From Eubacteriales bacterium (lineage in GTDB: Bacteria; Bacillota; Clostridia; Oscillospirales; CAG-272), in NCBI GenBank assembly GCA_045650025.1, contig JAZRQR010000062.1, positions 1-55,945 on the forward strand: a stretch of DNA of 55,945 bases, read 5' to 3'. The notes under the pieces were generated by a model. That model ran no database searches. It was given only the letters and a program-made list of their open reading frames with translations, and was not told where the DNA came from. The translations under genes and the position numbers were made by a program. Shown here one piece after another: positions 32,370-55,945 of this stretch. Every line of letters starts with the position of its first letter. Positions within the stretch are counted from its first letter, which is position 1.

Positions 32370-34814
32370 ATGTCGTCTTACATAGAAAAAGCCGAAATGA
32401 TGACCATGCCCGTAATCGCCTTGCGCGGTATTGTTGCATTCCCCGGCGCCACCATCAATTTTGATATTGCCCAGGATAGCTTTGGCTCTGCGCATGCAGC
32501 AAAGCTTGCCGCACAAGGGTCGCTGCCCGTGCTTTTGGTGACTTTGCGTAATCCCGGTGAGCCCGATGGCGGCGAGCCCTCGCTTGCCAAGCTGCACCGC
32601 GTTGGCACAGTTGCCAAGATCCGTCAGCTGGTCAAGTCGGCTGACGGTCAGAACCGCGCCATTGCCGTAGGTATGTCGCGCGGCATGATCTCTGCCCTGC
32701 ACCCCACCGAGGATGCTACCTATGCCGAGGTCATGTGCAAATCCTACACACTCAAGGACAACGGCGGCATCCGCGCCGAGGCACTCATGCGTCAGGCGCT
32801 GACATCTATGGAGCGCGTGGTGCGCCACCTGCCCGCCTCGGGTGAGGAGCTTATGCACGCGGCGCGCGCGCTTAAGGATCCCGGCATGCTTGCCGATATG
32901 ATCGCTGCCAACGTGCTGCTGCGCTCCGAGGATAAGCAGACCATTCTGGAATGCTTTGACCCCATGATCCGTATTGAGACCGTGACCATGATGCTGGATC
33001 ACGAGGCAGAGGTACTGGAATGTGATGCCATGATCAACGCGCGCGTGCGTGAGCGCATTGCCAGACACCAGAAGGAATACTACATGCGCGAGCAGATCCG
33101 CACCCTGCAGGAGGAGCTTGGCGAGGGTGACAACGAGATCTGGGAAAACAAAAAGCGCATTGAACAGGCGCATCTGCCCGAGGAGGTAGAGAAAAAGCTG
33201 CTCAAGGAAAACGATCGCCTTTCCCGCACCCCCTTCGGCTCTGCGGAAGCAGGCGTGCTGGAGAATTACCTGGACGTTTGCCTCTCCCTGCCCTGGAACA
33301 AGACCACCAAGGACCGCATCAGCATCTCTGCTGCCAAGAAGGTACTGGATGCCGATCACGACGGCATGGAAAAGGTCAAGGAGCGCATTCTTGAGTTCCT
33401 TGCGGTCAAGCAGCTCTCCCCCGAGCTTAAAAATCAGATCATTTGCTTAGTCGGCCCTCCCGGCGTGGGCAAGACCTCGGTTGCCGCGTCCATCGCGCGT
33501 GCCATGAAGCGCAAGTACGTACGCGTTTCTCTGGGCGGCGTGCGTGACGAGGCGGATATCCGCGGTCACAGAAAGACCTATATCGGCGCTATGCCCGGCA
33601 GAATTATCGACGCCCTTTCCCGTGCGGGCGTGCGCAATCCGCTCATCCTGCTTGACGAGATCGACAAGCTCTCGATCAGCGCACACGGTGACCCCTCCTC
33701 CGCACTTCTGGAGGTGCTGGATCCCGAGCAGAACAAATTCTTCCGCGACCACTTTGTGGAGCTGCCCTTCGACCTTTCGGATTGCCTTTTCATTGCAACC
33801 GCCAATACCCTGGAGACCGTACCGCGCCCCTTGATCGACCGTATGGAGATCATTGAGCTTAAGACCTACACTAAGAGTGAGAAGCGCAGCATTGCAAAAA
33901 ATCACCTGATCCCCAAGCAGCTGAAAAGACACGGACTCTCCGCGCGTACGGTAAAACTGACCGACGCTGCCGTGGACGAGCTGATTGAATACTACACCCG
34001 CGAGGCAGGCGTGCGTAATCTGGAGCGCATCATCGCAGACCTGTGCCGTAAGGCGGCAAAGCAGCTGGTGGAGACCGAAGCCAAGCGCATTACCGTTGAC
34101 GCCTGCGACATAGCCGGCTATCTTGGCCCGCGCAAGCGCTTGCCCGACGCGATCTCGCCCGTGGACGAGGTGGGCGAGGTCAACGGCCTTGCCTGGACAG
34201 AGGTGGGCGGTGACGTGCTGCGCGTGGAGGTTGCCGTGACCGACGGCACCGGCAAGATCGAGCTGACCGGCTCGCTGGGCGACGTGATGAAGGAAAGCGC
34301 CAAGGCAGCGCTGACCTACGTGCGCTCGGTTGCCACCACCTACGGCATTCCCACCGACTTTTACACCAAAAAGGATATTCACGTGCACGTACCCGAGGGT
34401 GCTGTGCCCAAGGACGGCCCCAGCGCAGGCGTGACCATGGCAACCGCTATGATCAGCGCGCTATCCGGCATTCCCGTACGCCGCAACGTTGCCATGACCG
34501 GTGAGATCACGCTGCGCGGCAGAGTGCTTGCTATTGGCGGCTTAAAAGAAAAAACGCTTGCCGCTTACGCAGCGGGAGCGGACACCGTGTGCATTCCCGC
34601 CGATAACATGCGCGACATGCACGAGCTTGATCCCGAGGTCAAGCAGCACGTGCGCTTTGTGCCCTGCAGCCGCATGGAGGACGTACTCGCCGTGGCGCTG
34701 GCACGCCCCGAGGCAGGCGAGACCGTCTCTGCTTCCCCCGAAATTTCCCACTACATTCCCGTAGCTACGGACGCTGTGCGCGCACCCGCTACGTCGTTTA
34801 CAGAGGTAAAATAA
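32370..34814 (+). CDS. lon: ATP-dependent Lon protease
   Basis: 814 aa. GPPGVGKTS Walker A, LLDEIDK Walker [15 protein letters not shown] catalytic Ser region. Confidence 0.95.
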
Positions 34815-35428
34815 TGGCTTTGATGACACAAAACTCCCAGCTGCAGATCAGCGCGGGACTTGCCAAGCAGTTCCCCACCAATCCCATTCCCCAGGTCGCC
34901 TTTTCGGGGCGCTCCAACGTGGGCAAGAGCTCGCTGCTCAACACGCTCCTTGGCAGAAAATCCTTGGCGCGCGTTTCCTCCGCGCCGGGTAAGACCATTA
35001 CGGTCAATTTCTACAACGTCGATAAAAAACTGTTTCTGGTCGACCTGCCCGGCTACGGCTTTGCAGCCCGTAACCCTGCGGATAAGGAAAAATGGTCGAC
35101 CCTGACCGACGGCTACTTCACCAATAATCCCAACGTGGATCTGCTTTGTCTGGTGCTGCAGCTGGTGGACAGCCGCGTGGGTCTGACGCGTGACGACGAG
35201 ATGATGGTGGATTTTCTCAACCAGAGCGGCATTCCCTACGCCATCGTTGCCACCAAGGTAGACAAGCTCAACAAGACCGAGCGAGAAAAGAACCTGGCAG
35301 CTCTCGCTTCGCACAAGCTCATCAAGCTCGGCACGCCCATCATTCCGTTCTCTTCCTTGAAGGGCGAGGGCAAAAACGAGGTCTGGAAGGTCATCTGCTC
35401 ACACGCGGATCTTCCTACCCCCAACTGA
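34814..35428 (+). CDS. engB: Ribosome biogenesis GTPase EngB/YsxC
   Basis: FSGRSNVGKSSLLN G1 motif, DLPGYG G3, TKVDK G4. 1-nt overlap with the lon stop, as in the conserved lon-engB pair. Confidence 0.92.
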   Translation: MALMTQNSQLQISAGLAKQFPTNPIPQVAFSGRSNVGKSSLLNTLLGRKSLARVSSAPGKTITVNFYNVDKKLFLVDLPGYGFAARNPADKEKWSTLTDGYFTNNPNVDLLCLVLQLVDSRVGLTRDDEMMVDFLNQSGIPYAIVATKVDKLNKTEREKNLAALASHKLIKLGTPIIPFSSLKGEGKNEVWKVICSHADLPTPN

Positions 35429-35437
35429 CGTTGGGGT

Positions 35438-35564
35438 GAAATATTTCGCTGCGCGAAATGTGAAATGTTTGCCTTTGGCAAACGTGAAATCCGCACTGCG
35501 TGCGGGTGAAATATTGCGCCCCCGGCGCAATGTTGTGGAAGAAATTTGCCCCCAGGCAAATTTC
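35438..35564 (+). repeat. Tandem hairpin array: four GAA-linked stem-loops with 3-nt loops, plus a fifth 10-bp hairpin
   Basis: H1 35441..35461, H2 35465..35485, H3 35489..35507, H4 35511..35533, H5 35541..35564. GAA at 35438, 35462, 35486 and 35508. Each of H1-H4 is closed by A-U then U-G pairs. Inner stems differ in sequence. Confidence 0.8.
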
Positions 35565-35607
35565 GGATTTTATTGAAATTTCCATTCTCTGATTTCGAGG
35601 TATTACC

Positions 35608-36927
35608 ATGCTTCTCTATCCCCATTTTGATATCAACGACCAAGGACACCTGACCGTGGGCGGCTTGGACACGACCGAGCTGGCTGCCGAGTTTGGCACG
35701 CCGGTCAATCTCCTGGACGAAAACGCGGTGCGCGCACAGATGCGTCTGTACCTGCGCTGCGCCAGAGAATCGTTTGGTGAAAGCGCATTGCCGCTGTTTG
35801 CCTCCAAGGCGCTGTGCTGTGCGGAAATTTACCGCATTGCTGCCGAGGAAGGCATGGGCATTGACTGCGTTTCCCCCGGTGAGCTTTATATTGCAGACAG
35901 CGTAGGCTTCCCCGCAGAGCGCATTTATTTTCACGGTAACAACAAGACCGACGCGGATCTGGCGCAGGCGCTGGATATGGGCGTTGGCACGTTTGTGGTG
36001 GATAACGCCGAGGAGCTGGATTCCCTGAGCGCACAGGCACTCGCACGCGGCATGCGCGCCCGCATTCTGTTGCGCATCACCCCCGGCATTGACCCCCACA
36101 CCCACAAGGCGATCTCCACGGGCGGCGTGGATTCCAAATTCGGCTCCGCCATTTACGCAGGCATTGCCGAGCAGATGGTGCTGCGCGCACTTTCCGCTCC
36201 CGGAGTGGATCTGCAGGGATTGCATTGCCACATCGGCTCGCAGATCTTTGATGCCGAGCCCTTCCTGGAGGCGGCACAGATCATGGTTGCATTCATGGCG
36301 GATATGATACACAGGCACGGCGCAAGACTGACCGAGCTCAATCTCGGCGGCGGTCTTGGCGTGCGCTATACCGCCGAGCAGCCTACCATGGACGTACAGA
36401 GCACCATGCAGACCATCGCAGGCGCGGTCAAGGCGCTGTGCGCCGAGCACGGCATGCCCATGCCCCGCGTGATCTTAGAGCCCGGTCGCTCGATCGTGGC
36501 AGGGGCGGGCGCAACGCTCTACACCGTAGGCTCTGTCAAGCAGATCCCCGGCTTTAAGAATTACGTATCGGTGGACGGCGGCATGCCCGACAACCCCCGT
36601 TACGCGCTCTATGGGTCCCCCTATACCGCGCTGATTGCCAACAAGGCGTCCCTGCCCGCAGACTTTTGTGCCACGGTTGCCGGTCGCTGCTGCGAATCGG
36701 GCGACCTGCTCGGCGAGGGCATGATGCTGCAAAAGCCGGTACGCGGCGATATCCTTGCCATGCTGGTTACGGGTGCATACCAGCACTCCATGGCATCCAA
36801 CTATAACAAGATCCCCCGTCCTCCGCTTGTCATGATCCGGGACGGTCAGGCGCGCGTAGTCGTGCGCCGCGAGACCTACCGTGATCTGCTTGCGTATGAC
36901 GTAACCGATCCCGTTTGCACGAGGTAA
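35608..36927 (+). CDS. lysA: Diaminopimelate decarboxylase
   Basis: 439 aa. PLP-dependent ornithine/DAP decarboxylase fold: FASKAL (Lys), HCHIGSQ, GGGLG, ILEPGRSIVA, CESGD motifs. Confidence 0.93.
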   Translation: MLLYPHFDINDQGHLTVGGLDTTELAAEFGTPVNLLDENAVRAQMRLYLRCARESFGESALPLFASKALCCAEIYRIAAEEGMGIDCVSPGELYIADSVGFPAERIYFHGNNKTDADLAQALDMGVGTFVVDNAEELDSLSAQALARGMRARILLRITPGIDPHTHKAISTGGVDSKFGSAIYAGIAEQMVLRALSAPGVDLQGLHCHIGSQIFDAEPFLEAAQIMVAFMADMIHRHGARLTELNLGGGLGVRYTAEQPTMDVQSTMQTIAGAVKALCAEHGMPMPRVILEPGRSIVAGAGATLYTVGSVKQIPGFKNYVSVDGGMPDNPRYALYGSPYTALIANKASLPADFCATVAGRCCESGDLLGEGMMLQKPVRGDILAMLVTGAYQHSMASNYNKIPRPPLVMIRDGQARVVVRRETYRDLLAYDVTDPVCTR

Positions 36928-36930
36928 ATT

Positions 36931-37662
36931 ATGCTTCTCAATTTGTTACAATCGGGTCTGAGTGAAGGCTTTGGCAGCGTGGACTTCAAGCTCTCGCTGG
37001 TCTCCATCCTGCTCTCTCTCCCCATTATCATGTTTGCCCTTTCGGTACACGAGACCGCGCACGGTCTGGCGGCGTACTGGCTGGGTGACTCTACTGCCAA
37101 AAATCTTGGCAGACTGACGCTCAACCCCTTAAAGCACTTAAACCCCATGGGCTTTCTGTGCATGCTGATCGTAGGATTTGGTTGGGCAAATCCCGTGCCC
37201 ATCAACACGCGCAATTTCAAAAATCCGCGCGTTGGCATGGCGCTTTCGGGCATTGCAGGTCCTCTTTCCAATTTCCTGATCGCCACCGTCAGCTGCTTTC
37301 TCTATTTGCTGACCGAGTTTGTGCTGATCCTTTCCGGCGTGGAATCCACCGGCATCTGGATCTGGATACTGGAAAACTTTCTGTTCATGAGCACCTATCT
37401 CAACCTGGCGCTGGCAGTATTCAACCTCATTCCCGTGCCTCCGTTTGACGGCTCGCGCTTTGCATACGTGCTGCTGCCCAGCAAGTGGTACTTCAAGGTC
37501 ATGCAGTACGAGCGCTACACCGGCATTGTGCTGCTCGTGATTCTGATGGTGTGCTCCCGTCTGGGCTTTTCGCCCGTCGGCATTGTGGTCGAATTTTTGC
37601 TTGGCATTCTGGAAGCAATTCTCGCGTTCCCCTTAAATCTGATTCTTACCCTGATTTTATGA
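36931..37662 (+). CDS. Site-2 protease family (M50) membrane metalloprotease
   Basis: HETAHGLAAYWLGD HExxH motif in a TM helix, NLIPVPPFDGS second motif, polytopic membrane protein. Confidence 0.8.
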   Translation: MLLNLLQSGLSEGFGSVDFKLSLVSILLSLPIIMFALSVHETAHGLAAYWLGDSTAKNLGRLTLNPLKHLNPMGFLCMLIVGFGWANPVPINTRNFKNPRVGMALSGIAGPLSNFLIATVSCFLYLLTEFVLILSGVESTGIWIWILENFLFMSTYLNLALAVFNLIPVPPFDGSRFAYVLLPSKWYFKVMQYERYTGIVLLVILMVCSRLGFSPVGIVVEFLLGILEAILAFPLNLILTLIL

Positions 37663-42378: not shown

Positions 42379-42763
42379 GGTAAAACCCATTCAGGACAAG
42401 CCCACGCAGGAAAAGATCTGCCATCTTTGCGGCGTGGAATACCTTGCCGAGGATTTTTGCTACAGCGTATGGGATGAGGGCGAATTTGCAGGCGTTTGCC
42501 AGTTTAACATCTACGCCGACCACGGCGAGCTGCACTCGCTGATTTCCCTGCCCGATGCCGATGCATTCCAGGCAATGTTCACGGCAGGTCGCGCTGCACT
42601 CAACTTTATAGATTTGTGTGACGTACATCTGGCATACTACACAGGCACGGTACAGGACGAGACGCTGATCAAGGCGATCGGCTTCCGTCAGAGCCCGGAG
42701 GGGCGTTGGGAGATGGATCTGACCGGATTTTTCACCAAGCCCTGCTCCTGCAAAGCAGAATAA
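42371..42763 (+). CDS. Hypothetical 130-aa protein
   Basis: ORF overlaps the rluB end by 8 nt. No motif recognised. Coding-like composition. Confidence 0.5.
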   Translation: MFEVKPIQDKPTQEKICHLCGVEYLAEDFCYSVWDEGEFAGVCQFNIYADHGELHSLISLPDADAFQAMFTAGRAALNFIDLCDVHLAYYTGTVQDETLIKAIGFRQSPEGRWEMDLTGFFTKPCSCKAE

Positions 42764-42818
42764 AAAAATAATAAAATATAAAAAAATAAAAAAATAATAA
42801 AAAATAAGGAGAATTACC

Positions 42819-53883: not shown

Positions 53884-54576
53884 TTAAGCCTCGGGCTCGG
53901 TAATGATCAGAGAGAACTTTGCGATAGTCTTCTTGTTCTGCTTACCGTTGATCCAGGACTCGATCTCATACTTTGCGTACTCCTCAGGCAGGGTGGAAGC
54001 CTTGAAGGGCTTACCGGTCCAAACGCCAACGCCTTCGCCTTCATCGTAAGCATCGCAAACCAGAATCAGAACCTTACCTGCACCAATTACGCCTTCGTCA
54101 AACTCTGCAACCAGAGAAGAGTTGTCGGCAAAGTCAACAAACTCGTCAACCTGCAGGGGCTCGCCTGCAACGGTGGTCTCATAGTCGGTATCCCATCTGT
54201 ACACCTTAATGCTCAGGTTACCGATGTCATCGCTATAGCTGGGAGCCTGAACAGCAGCCTCGTACAGATAGCCGCCCTCGGGAATGGTTACAACAACACC
54301 TACGCCCTTGCTCTTCGATTCGATCTTCAGAGCGTTGTGAGAAGCATCATCGTCATCCCAAACGTCAACGTAAACGTCGGTCATATCCGGCAGACCGTCA
54401 TCGGTGGTTACCTCTTCGGTGGTGGGTTCCTCGGTGGTGGGTTCTTCGGTAGTGGGAGCTTCGGTCTTGGTAGCAGCGGTGGTGTTCTTCTCTTCGGTGG
54501 TTTCACCGTTGTCGCAAGCAACCAGCACGCAGCAGATCATCAAAGCTGCCAGGATCATTGCAAGAATTCTTTTCAT
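53884..54576 (-). CDS. Small surface lipoprotein with a TEEPT-repeat linker and a beta-sandwich-like domain of unknown function
   Basis: Trimmed to the ATG at 54576 (MKRILAMILAALMICCVLVAC lipobox, RBS AAAGGAG). The domain resembles the N-terminal region of the 29115..31754 product (YRW/YKW, AEP, VGVWT landmarks). Confidence 0.7.
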   Translation of the reverse strand: MKRILAMILAALMICCVLVACDNGETTEEKNTTAATKTEAPTTEEPTTEEPTTEEVTTDDGLPDMTDVYVDVWDDDDASHNALKIESKSKGVGVVVTIPEGGYLYEAAVQAPSYSDDIGNLSIKVYRWDTDYETTVAGEPLQVDEFVDFADNSSLVAEFDEGVIGAGKVLILVCDAYDEGEGVGVWTGKPFKASTLPEEYAKYEIESWINGKQNKKTIAKFSLIITEPEA

Positions 54577-54706: not shown

Positions 54707-54724
54707 AGGCGCGAACAACCGCAT

Positions 54725-54825
54725 AAAAAATCAGGGGTGCTGACGGAAAACACGTTTTCCAACGGCTGAGATGCGCAGCGCGCGAACCCTTAACCTGATA
54801 CGGATAATACCGGCGTAGGAAGATT
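54725..54825 (+). promoter_or_regulatory. TPP (THI-box) riboswitch
   Basis: CAGGGGTGCTGA...GGCTGAGA...GAACCCTTAACCTGATACGGATAATACCGGCGTAGGAAG matches the THI-element core (GGGGUGC, CUGAGA, ACCUGAUxxGGAUAAUACCxGCGxAGGGA). Confidence 0.88.
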
Positions 54826-54850
54826 TGCATGAATTTGGGATAAGAATCAT

Positions 54851-55615: not shown

Positions 55616-55945
55616 GCAGCTTTGCTAAACGGCCGCGCCGTATGTTGCCGAAAGGTATTACGGTGAGGAAAGTCCGGGCTTTACAGGGCAAGGGTAGCTG
55701 ATAACGTCAGCCGCGGGTAACCGCCGGGAAAGTGCAACAGAAATAAACCGCCGTGCAAACGGTAAGGATGGAAAGGCGAGGTAAGAGCTCACCCACTCCT
55801 ATGGTAACATAGGTTTGCTGTAAACCCTACACAAAGCAACACCGTTCGGGGTATGTCTGCCCGACAGCCGCAAGGACCCGATGGGTGGCACGAACGCGAA
55901 AGCGTTCGGAGCTTTCTGGCGACAGGGAGCAAAGATAGATGGCCG
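55616..55945 (+). ncRNA. rnpB: RNase P RNA, bacterial class A, truncated at the 3' end by the window edge
   Basis: GAGGAAAGTCCGGGC (55665..55679), AGTGCAACAGAAATAAACCGCC, GGTAAGAGCTCACC and AAGATAGATGGCC correspond to conserved RNase P class A blocks. Roughly the last 40-50 nt are missing. Confidence 0.88.

Follow-up and report, generated by a model that had tools for sequence, protein, structure and literature searches.

What is the regular row of hairpins that separates engB from lysA in a clostridial genome from the gut, and what might it do there? We analysed a contig of a Eubacteriales bacterium (GTDB lineage Bacteria; Bacillota; Clostridia; Oscillospirales; CAG-272; assembly GCA_045650025.1, contig JAZRQR010000062.1) over its whole length of 55,945 nt, hereafter the window. 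A preliminary description had pointed out four GAA-linked hairpins with unrelated stems in this intergenic spacer, followed by a fifth, and had recognised no known family in them. The array proves to be a copy of Gut-1, a motif that Rfam already lists (RF01706) and that recurs as a dispersed repeat in gut Clostridia. Our preferred reading, to which we give a rough probability of 0.55, is that of a mobile or fast-turnover intergenic hairpin module, co-transcribed with engB and lysA, that would shape the 3′ end of the upstream message and the read-through beyond it, like the repetitive extragenic palindromic (REP) and BOX elements of other bacteria.

The hairpin row is a copy of Gut-1

Searched with the models of Rfam 15 at their gathering scores, the window gave three matches: RNase P RNA, a thiamine pyrophosphate (TPP) riboswitch and Gut-1. 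The Gut-1 match spans 35434..35517 on the plus strand and the full model (positions 1-77), with 50.5 bits against a gathering score of 50 and E = 4.5e-7 for the whole window. This score is borderline; the allele of the same spacer in a related contig, L249, reaches 53.3 bits, and that of another, L126, is not listed at the gathering score. The layout agrees as well. The Rfam consensus reads UGAAAU, hairpin, GUGAAAU, hairpin, GUGAAAU, hairpin, UGAAAU, with AU/GU outer pairs and a GAA linker, and in the consensus alignment and the fold the window likewise shows a run of at least three hairpins with GUGAAAU between them, closed by A-U and U-G pairs and linked by GAA. Model and window also share the UGAAAU motif, C-UNC-G loops and an origin in gut bacteria; the model has three hairpins, whereas the window copy has four units together with a leading hairpin (H0), a purine box and a terminal hairpin. 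The window sequence is present in bovine-gut and gut metagenome runs, and matches to the family come mainly from metagenome-assembled genomes (MAGs) of ruminant and human gut Clostridia. The failure to recognise a known family is thereby overturned by a finding that the preliminary description had itself named as one that would count against it.

Weinberg et al. (2010, Genome Biol 11:R31; PMC2864571) described Gut-1 from 43 representatives, in human-gut metagenomes only. It was rated as RNA (yes) and as cis-regulatory (no), was given no function, and receives one sentence in the supplementary text. The alignment of that study (PMC2864571) already holds the GUGAUAU variant and arrays behind stop codons and predicted terminators, as well as a reverse array (AUAUCAC) that follows a forward one, and copies exactly 240 nt apart on one contig. 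We found no literature on Gut-1 later than that paper, and none on GUGAAAU. Rfam classes the family as a small RNA gene; the window copy lies inside a gene row and is not a free-standing gene. Nor is the family confined to the human gut, as the paper had it, since the window copy comes from a Ruminococcaceae-like MAG of the bovine gut. Weinberg et al. are silent on insertion polymorphism, convergent pairs and any linkage to PF05635. What is new here is polymorphism in presence and absence and in unit number, a multi-copy family that includes Akkermansia, sense polarity, convergent pairs and the PF05635 linkage.

Anatomy of the window copy

The spacer measures 179 nt (35429-35607), as first reported, between the open reading frames (ORFs) 34814-35428 and 35608-36927. 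Its 5′ part reads TGA (the engB stop), C, GTTGGG, GTGAAAT, ATTTCGC-TGC-GCGAAAT, GTGAAAT and GTTTGCC-TTT-GGCAAAC; the middle reads GTGAAAT, CCGCAC-TGC-GTGCGG, GTGAAAT and ATTGCGCC-CCC-GGCGCAAT; and the 3′ part consists of GTTGTGGAA, then GAAATTTGCC-CCCA-GGCAAATTTC, then GGATTTTATT. The four GTGAAAT junctions, identified from the sequence and from pattern counts, start at 35436, 35460, 35484 and 35506 and together occupy 35436..35512 on the plus strand. In each junction the GU closes the preceding hairpin, the GAA is single-stranded and the AU opens the next hairpin.

The minimum-free-energy fold of the plus strand gives H1 as AU-ATTTCGC-UGC-GCGAAAU-GU (9 bp, 35441..35461), H2 as AU-GUUUGCC-UUU-GGCAAAC-GU (9 bp, 35465..35485), H3 as AU-CCGCAC-UGC-GUGCGG-GU (8 bp, 35489..35507), H4 as (A)AU-AUUGCGCC-CCC-GGCGCAAU-GU(U) (10-11 bp, 35510..35534) and the terminal AT-rich hairpin H5, also found by the terminator scan, as GAAAUUUGCC-CCCA-GGCAAAUUUC (10 bp, 35541..35564). 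The positions first assigned to H1-H5 are thus reproduced by the fold (H4 as 35510/11-35533/34), and the geometry proposed for them, a GAA linker with A-U and U-G closing pairs around variable but perfect stems, is borne out by both fold and alignment.

Three parts had been missed. The first is H0, CCCCAAC-TGAC-GTTGGGG (35419..35436, plus strand, read from the sequence), which spans the engB stop codon (35426-35428); its 5′ arm CCCCAAC is formed by the last codons of engB and its 3′ arm by the inserted element. The second is the purine box GTTGTGGAA (gttgtggaa; 35532..35540, plus strand), which comparison with other copies identifies as a degenerate last junction. It reads gttaaggaa in L249 and gttaaggtg in L126, and gtgaaggtgg, gttaaggaag and gttgaggagg at unrelated loci; its consensus in other solo copies, GT-N-N-AGG/GGG-purines, resembles a Shine-Dalgarno sequence. 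The third is the T-rich tail GGATTTTATTGAA (35565..35577, plus strand, terminator scan) behind H5. A pattern scan lists H5 with GGATTTTATT as terminator-like, the T-run beginning 3 nt past the stem, and together they form a weak intrinsic-terminator-like site. The original statement that the spacer has no T-tract terminator was therefore too strong. A promoter scan of the spacer found none that could serve lysA or a separate small RNA, in line with the original remark that lysA has no obvious promoter here.

The RNA fold of the spacer has a minimum free energy of -68.6 kcal/mol (RNAfold; z = -5.2), equalled by 0/200 shuffles. Four of the nine occurrences of GTGAAAT in the window fall within 77 nt, and all three occurrences in the window of TGAAAT-N12-24-TGAAAT are in the array, where 0.13 would be expected. 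A chance origin of the hairpin array is excluded.

The direction in which the array is read needs a different argument from the one first given, which held that the T-G closing pairs are wobbles in the engB-to-lysA sense only. The minus strand folds nearly as well (z = -5.0), because the array is a row of palindromes, so that the fold itself gives no strand; the T-G closing 'wobble' is invariant and therefore neutral on pairing. The proposed polarity is nonetheless upheld by genomic context, in which all 17 scorable copies found at the level of the Rfam model lie in sense, as set out below.

The same spacer with and without the array

We compared contigs fetched for the closest EngB proteins, in which the gene order lon-engB-lysA-M50 peptidase-scpA is kept. 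Array-less spacers of 42 nt are found in L120 and L121 (EngB 98% identical), of 25 nt in L122-L125 (92%), of 2 nt in L254 (90%) and of 13 nt in L252 (84%). L253 (93%) carries an array that is nearly base-for-base that of the window, L249 (92%) one with five junctions, L250, whose EngB protein is identical to that of L249, one with three, and L126-L128 (92%) one with four and a different H0 that also uses the flank. A tandem duplication of two units sets L249 apart from L250. The array is thus an insertion, polymorphic within a narrow clade, with quick turnover. As L253 has the array and the closer L120 lacks it, recombination or recent loss at this locus is indicated.

Relative to the 42-nt spacer of L120 and L121, the element amounts to about 137 nt (35431..35567, plus strand); no target-site duplication was seen in that comparison, and the borders are not sharp. 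The flank CCCCAACTGA is retained in the array-less L120, and an identical H0 is found in L249, L250 and L253. A first hairpin built partly from pre-existing flank was observed at the engB end (window 35419-35436), at an ACTGA stop region (L126:3110-3145) and at a tRNA terminator (L096). This suggests that the element targets, or grows from, a hairpin already present.

Within the array, both arms of the stems change together. The H1 homologues are atttcgc/gcgaaat in the window, attttgc/gcaaaat in L249 and gtttcgc/gcgaaac in L126, with both arms changed; the H3 homologues, ccgcac/gtgcgg in the window and tcgcgc/gcgcga in L126 and L249, differ in two pairs, both on both sides. In the comparison of orthologous spacers for compensatory change, put forward at the outset as a check, all differences between perfectly paired homologous units at the engB-lysA locus (8/8) are compensated; besides these, a single G-U pair and a single shortened arm occur among the alleles compared (L249/L250). 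The terminal hairpin stem and the purine box are common to all array-bearing alleles, and the H5 stem is retained in the L249 and L126 alleles with a different loop. Pairwise counts of compensated changes over all units were dropped as evidence, as near-perfect hairpins had been pre-selected and the count would be circular.

These alleles bear directly on the idea that the array is a lysA-specific cis-regulator (a leader, attenuator or riboswitch) that responds to lysine or to some related signal. The location just in front of lysA, where no promoter for that gene is visible, would suit such a role. Against it, the spacer is array-less in four relatives with the same gene order and only 2-42 nt between the genes, which means that control of lysA does not include the array as a conserved component; other copies lie beside unrelated genes and tRNAs; the stems keep no sequence that could form a ligand pocket; and there is no match to a lysine L-box or another riboswitch, the L-box, absent from the first reading too, not appearing even at E <= 10. 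The lysA-linked role entertained earlier is for practical purposes refuted by the array-less alleles; the array is neither responsive to lysine nor a regulator specific to lysA.

Gut-1 as a dispersed family

A pattern scan of one genome per species for three GTGAWAT heptamers 13-21 nt apart gave at least 119 loci. Those listed belong mostly to MAGs of Oscillospiraceae, Acutalibacteraceae, Ruminococcaceae, Christensenellaceae and unclassified Clostridia from ruminant and human guts. Among the gut-bacterial loci listed, 75% of the segments between junctions form hairpins with at most one mismatch; among the control matches listed, the figures are 8% for viral contigs, 15% for metagenomes of all biomes and 2-3% for shuffled sequence. 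A phage origin of the array was rejected, since the viral contigs with the same pattern, among the matches listed, hold almost only non-hairpin chance repeats.

An alignment of 61 units of 24-nt spacing from other genomes was assembled with no filter for pairing. The junction is invariant across the 61 units, and 92% of cells are paired compared with 58% in shuffles (0/500 as high). Covariation scores 0.80, whereas shuffles reach 0.17 and slid partners 0.08-0.19, and all four Watson-Crick types occur at all 7 inner pairs. Across the family the junction heptamer is GUGAAAU or GUGAUAU, and junctions are spaced 18-28 nt apart in step with stem length. Of 279 hairpins, 235 close their loop with a C-G pair; loops with T first and C last number 163, those with G first and A last 8.

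The spacing also argues against a double-stranded reading, in which iteron-like direct repeats would be bound cooperatively for replication or partition. A 7-mer repeated at about two helical turns, with scpA and scpB downstream, invites this idea, which had been raised at the outset. The 18-28-bp spacing follows stem length and is unphased, however; palindromes, for which iterons have no need, invariably fill the DNA between the heptamers; the 143 ORFs next to the copies include no rep or par gene; and hundreds of chromosomal intergenic copies occur in many genomes. We regard iterons as very improbable.

Gut-1 arrays take two forms. The solo form, as in the window, comprises a leading hairpin, 3-5 units of junction and hairpin, the purine box, an AT-rich terminal hairpin and a T-rich tail; the leading hairpin is sometimes the terminator of the upstream gene or tRNA. 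In the paired form, a short-stem array within a long-range stem (GAAATAAATCC...GGATTTATTTC) is followed after 26-31 nt by a long-stem array on the opposite strand. All pairs no more than 150 nt apart are convergent (29/29; 0 divergent, 0 tandem). The Rfam model picks up solo arrays and, in pairs, the short-stem member; the long-stem member it detects only sometimes.

Neighbours were called as longest-first, non-overlapping ORFs together with ARAGORN tRNAs, because nearest-ORF calls are too noisy in GC-rich DNA. Orientation was tallied over the scorable cases among 17 Rfam-level hits and the window: the upstream gene or tRNA is co-oriented with the array in 17/17 and the downstream gene in 15/16. 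Taking the short-stem array as the reference for each of the 29 pairs, we found the upstream feature in the same orientation in 27; 13 of these features are tRNA genes 37-74 nt away. Of 35 Rfam-level hits outside the window, nine follow a co-oriented tRNA at a distance of no more than 130 nt. Positions behind co-oriented tRNAs (37-130 nt) are occupied well above the expectation from tRNA density, as at L047:94-385, L009, L025, L038, L096, L103, L105, L040 and others.

Other copies lie beside unrelated genes, for example rbfA or an rlmH-like gene. One MAG holds three copies (L006 and two in L008) with a shared unit order and compensated differences, so that copies within a genome are paralogues. 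At L047, two copies 2.7 kb apart have one and the same bidirectional terminator upstream, and the terminator is therefore part of the repeated unit. Arrays at the Rfam level were also observed in Akkermansia or Akkermansiaceae MAGs from the ruminant gut (L005:5650-7050, L005:2312-3306, L010:7005-7087), and the element thus spans two phyla. The L005 contig (Akkermansia) has composite units of about 195 nt in tandem on either side of a four-helix-bundle gene, with three more Rfam-level hits. Lysine and ZMP/ZTP riboswitches were seen elsewhere in Gut-1 loci (L022:655-823; L078:4869-4952), unlinked to the arrays.

The family-wide picture agrees best with one option in the preliminary description, that of a genome-wide REP-like element: multi-copy, intergenic, present or absent among close relatives and variable in unit number. 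Clustering of the 143 ORFs that flank arrays revealed no transposase or integrase family among them, so the term 'mobile' refers only to the pattern of presence and absence and to copy number.

Several of these features would also suit an element that acts as DNA, through recognition of single strands or cruciforms, as a site of recombination or mobility (comparable to REP doublets forming hairpins (REPINs) with their REP-associated tyrosine transposases (RAYTs), to attC sites or to the ends of IS200/IS605) or as an operator for a DNA-binding protein; the RNA fold would then be incidental and the window copy a non-autonomous remnant. The convergence of all 29 pairs recalls REPIN doublets, and copies favour sites behind tRNA genes (13/29 pairs; 9/35 Rfam-level hits); the 3′ regions of tRNA genes are a classic landing place for mobile DNA. 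The repeated unit carries its own terminator, occurs in two phyla and, in H0, consists partly of flank sequence. Against this, no HUH/Y1 transposase, integrase or RAYT is found among the 143 neighbouring ORFs, the variable spacing argues against phased double-stranded binding, and the window insertion shows no target-site duplication. Orientation, moreover, follows the genes in 17/17, above the roughly 80% concordance that would be expected from replication direction alone.

Transcription, and selection on RNA or DNA

The evidence for RNA comes from undirected Logan contigs, which report presence in RNA libraries and carry neither strand nor transcript ends. The metatranscriptome X23 holds one contig from the end of engB into the array (35360-35476) and one from the array to the start of lysA (35447-35608), at a depth like that of the flanking genes. 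A run that is only guessed to be RNA, X24, holds one 200-nt contig (35420-35617), with a flank depth of 0. At another locus, L301, the Gut-1 copy is joined to the upstream gene in a metatranscriptome contig. These undirected contigs cross the spacer, and so agree with the original proposal that the array lies inside a lon-engB-lysA transcript. They extend beyond H5; termination is therefore incomplete and lysA can be reached by read-through, which fits the absence of a promoter-like site from the spacer. The strict sense orientation and a T-rich tail on the sense strand only were also counted for RNA. In our reading, the polarity of the element is tied to transcription, and the window copy certainly lies inside a transcript.

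Several observations weigh against a module that works through its RNA. The RNA contigs carry no strand, and carry-over of DNA is possible. Of 279 distinct hairpins, 225 (81%) are perfect, which is atypical of RNA stems, and among 1690 pairs single G-T pairs (11) do not exceed A-C (23) or other mismatches (20). This mismatch pattern fits a constraint on DNA-level palindromes as well or better; neutral transitions in a palindrome of DNA would give it, and it is not what a typical RNA stem would show. Terminator-like hairpins in the same loci, used as a control for wobble, gave 46 G-T against 35 A-C, a control that is itself noisy, and the RNA-versus-DNA test (Fisher p = 0.024) is therefore suggestive and not decisive. 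Many paired copies, furthermore, sit between a strong terminator and a promoter, where little sense RNA is to be expected.

The action of the array as DNA gains from these same palindromes, near-perfect and with no excess of wobble, as would follow if constraint on both strands or template-switch correction maintained them, and from the loops of the complementary strand, which read C-GNA-G and GNNA. DNA mini-hairpin loops of the d(GCGAAGC) type are very stable. Taking these points together with the missing mobility genes and the gene-bound orientation, we consider a function at the DNA level unlikely. The upkeep of the hairpins may come from selection on RNA, or from a process acting on DNA, for example the correction of quasi-palindromes by template switching.

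In a further explanation, the array is a protein-binding RNA platform or small RNA whose hairpins display GUGAAAU or its GAA to a multimeric protein, with PF05635 as candidate and the window as a dispersed site. The single X24 contig, from a run whose RNA status is guessed, covers just 35420-35617 with no depth in the flanks. An invariant junction between varying stems, a spacing of 18-28 nt that keeps its geometry only when folded, the strong loop bias and the rating as RNA but not cis-regulatory by Weinberg et al. (2010) all point the same way. The array has no promoter of its own in the window, however, and begins at the engB stop codon. Further evidence on both sides comes from the genes that accompany the arrays.

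A recurrent four-helix-bundle gene

Only one family recurs more than three times among the 143 array-flanking ORFs, a protein of about 116 aa that matches PF05635 (23S rRNA intervening-sequence protein) and TIGR02436 (four helix bundle protein). At eight loci of the scan (L009, L056, L103, L080, L040, L022, L019, L055), a distance of 15-72 nt separates the start of its gene from the long-stem array, and the gene shares its orientation with the Gut-1 array. We fetched 28 loci for three variants of the protein (within L375-L404, for example L375:470-800), and paired Gut-1 arrays lie directly upstream of the gene in all 28. First in the arrangement comes a tRNA or gene end, then a bidirectional terminator, then caacgaaat..., three GTGAAAT units and four ATTTCAC units; a promoter-like TAGACA-17-TACAAT, a ribosome-binding site and the gene complete it. 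It recurs in at least five different upstream contexts and is usually right behind a tRNA gene. The proposed order of the cassette is thus terminator, sense array, antisense array, promoter and four-helix-bundle gene.

The protein itself is very abundant and hardly varies, with 7961 matches at E <= 1e-20, the best 120 of which are 87-98% identical. Its closest solved relative is 2RLD, an entry with five chains. The gene gave no PADLOC hit to a defence system, and the window contains no PF05635 gene. At one further locus (L029:1000-1500), a four-helix-bundle gene is flanked by GAGAAAT/TAGAAAT repeats and a 14-nt tandem repeat (ATTTCAC + ATTGCTC), the heptamer there occurring without hairpins.

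Genes of the PF05635 family, including the Avd family of diversity-generating retroelements (DGRs), are known as small cassettes in odd places, with stem-forming repeat flanks (rRNA intervening sequences). The cassettes described here differ in that Gut-1 arrays precede the gene in 28/28, no DGR reverse transcriptase or template/variable repeats lie nearby, and the genes are outside rRNA. We tentatively suggest, as a possibility that falls short of our preferred reading, that Gut-1 arrays are the cis partner of these Avd-like, pentameric proteins in a new cassette that sits behind tRNAs from gut Clostridia to Akkermansia; the protein would read the hairpins as RNA or single-stranded DNA, and solo arrays would be dispersed sites or non-autonomous offspring. 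This linkage concerns the family rather than the window copy, and it is the best lead to a reader of the junction.

For the RNA platform, the 28/28 association and the five chains of the 2RLD entry also count in favour. The arrays of PF05635 cassettes lie between terminator and promoter, however, and perhaps in no abundant transcript, the binding is putative, and the window has no such gene; a platform function for the window copy is accordingly doubtful in our estimation.

Surroundings of the array in the window

The array lies in sense orientation inside the gene row lon-engB-lysA-(M50 peptidase)-scpA. The gene engB (ysxC/yihA), for a ribosome-biogenesis GTPase, occupies 34814..35428 on the plus strand (TIGR03598, 192 bits), and its start overlaps the lon stop at 34814 by one base. 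Downstream of the array follow lysA, for diaminopimelate decarboxylase (35608..36927, plus strand; TIGR01048, 433.7 bits), and scpA and scpB. NCBIfam supports the naming of lon, ysxC/yihA (engB), lysA and scpA; an ORF at 36931-37662 (243 aa) has no NCBIfam match, and its counterpart in relatives is Pfam Peptidase_M50.

Further along, the window contains the TPP riboswitch (54723-54838, 69.2 bits) and, truncated where the window stops, a class A RNase P RNA of which the 5′ part is present (55617-55945, 183 bits). An A-rich tandem repeat of low complexity occupies 42759-42807 (units AATAAAAA / 18 nt), and at 54413-54465, about 260 nt upstream of the TPP riboswitch, a 15-nt unit is repeated 3.5 times (TCTTCGGTGGTGGGT).

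Comparison with known repeats and a model for the array

REP elements, with the bacterial interspersed mosaic elements (BIMEs) and REPINs that they form, resemble Gut-1 in being short intergenic palindromes in many copies, arranged in arrays and inverted pairs at the 3′ ends of transcription units and co-transcribed with them. In REP, one palindrome serves a whole family, has a GTAG head and is linked to a RAYT, whereas in Gut-1 the stems differ, a 7-nt junction is conserved and the units stand in direct order. For these reasons we rejected an assignment to REP/BIME proper, the stems differing from unit to unit and the conserved part being GTGAAAT rather than a shared palindrome headed by GTAG. 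No gene for a RAYT (TnpA-REP) is present among the 143 clustered neighbouring ORFs, the whole genomes not having been searched. The BOX elements of Streptococcus pneumoniae (boxA-boxB(n)-boxC) share with Gut-1 a head, a repeated middle and a tail, an intergenic position, stable RNA folds, co-transcription and the lack of a transposase of their own. There is no sequence relation, and boxB units are 45 nt long and alike, whereas Gut-1 units measure 18-28 nt and have unrelated stems. REP/BIME elements in Escherichia coli stabilize the upstream mRNA, and BOX elements in pneumococci act on neighbouring messages.

In its display of a short invariant single-stranded motif by several hairpins of free sequence, Gut-1 is also like CsrB and RsmZ. 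There the GGA motif is mostly in loops, the reader is CsrA, and each RNA is an independent gene with its own promoter and terminator; for Gut-1 such features would be putative. Two array-forming systems were considered and set aside. Clustered regularly interspaced short palindromic repeat (CRISPR) arrays have repeats of about 23-50 nt with unique non-palindromic spacers, and cas genes; here the conserved unit is 7 nt, the variable parts are palindromes of 11-21 nt and no cas-like neighbour recurs, so the early judgement that this is not a CRISPR stands. Type III toxin-antitoxin arrays (ToxI-like) have tandem repeats that are nearly identical to one another, with a terminator and the gene of an endoribonuclease toxin behind them; the Gut-1 units are dissimilar, lysA lies downstream, and the PF05635 gene has no PADLOC hit.

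We therefore return to the intergenic module of rapid turnover as our preferred reading. On the mRNA, the array would fold as stacked hairpins right behind the engB stop codon and give the upstream message a structured 3′ end that could block 3′-to-5′ exonucleases. H5 would act as a weak terminator, with read-through sufficient for lysA. Tandem duplication accounts for the gain and loss of units, and stem changes affect both arms. Beyond the identity, polymorphism, polarity and transcription reported above, this effect on mRNA is proposed by analogy, and the analogical nature of the stabilizer and weak-terminator role counts as a further point against it. The single-stranded, invariant GAA junction and the biased C-UNC-G loops imply a sequence-specific reader, either a protein or a nuclease, and such a putative reader may also explain the spread of the element.

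The hairpin row in the window should be annotated as a Gut-1 element, and not as a new RNA class or a lysA leader. The finding is ordinary once Rfam has been consulted; Gut-1 is an orphan family whose context suggests direct experiments. It has stood in Rfam since 2010 as a functionless motif of the 'human gut only', and its genomic context now makes the family testable. If the functional link to the four-helix-bundle gene is true, it would represent the first role for the large orphan PF05635 family outside diversity-generating retroelements.

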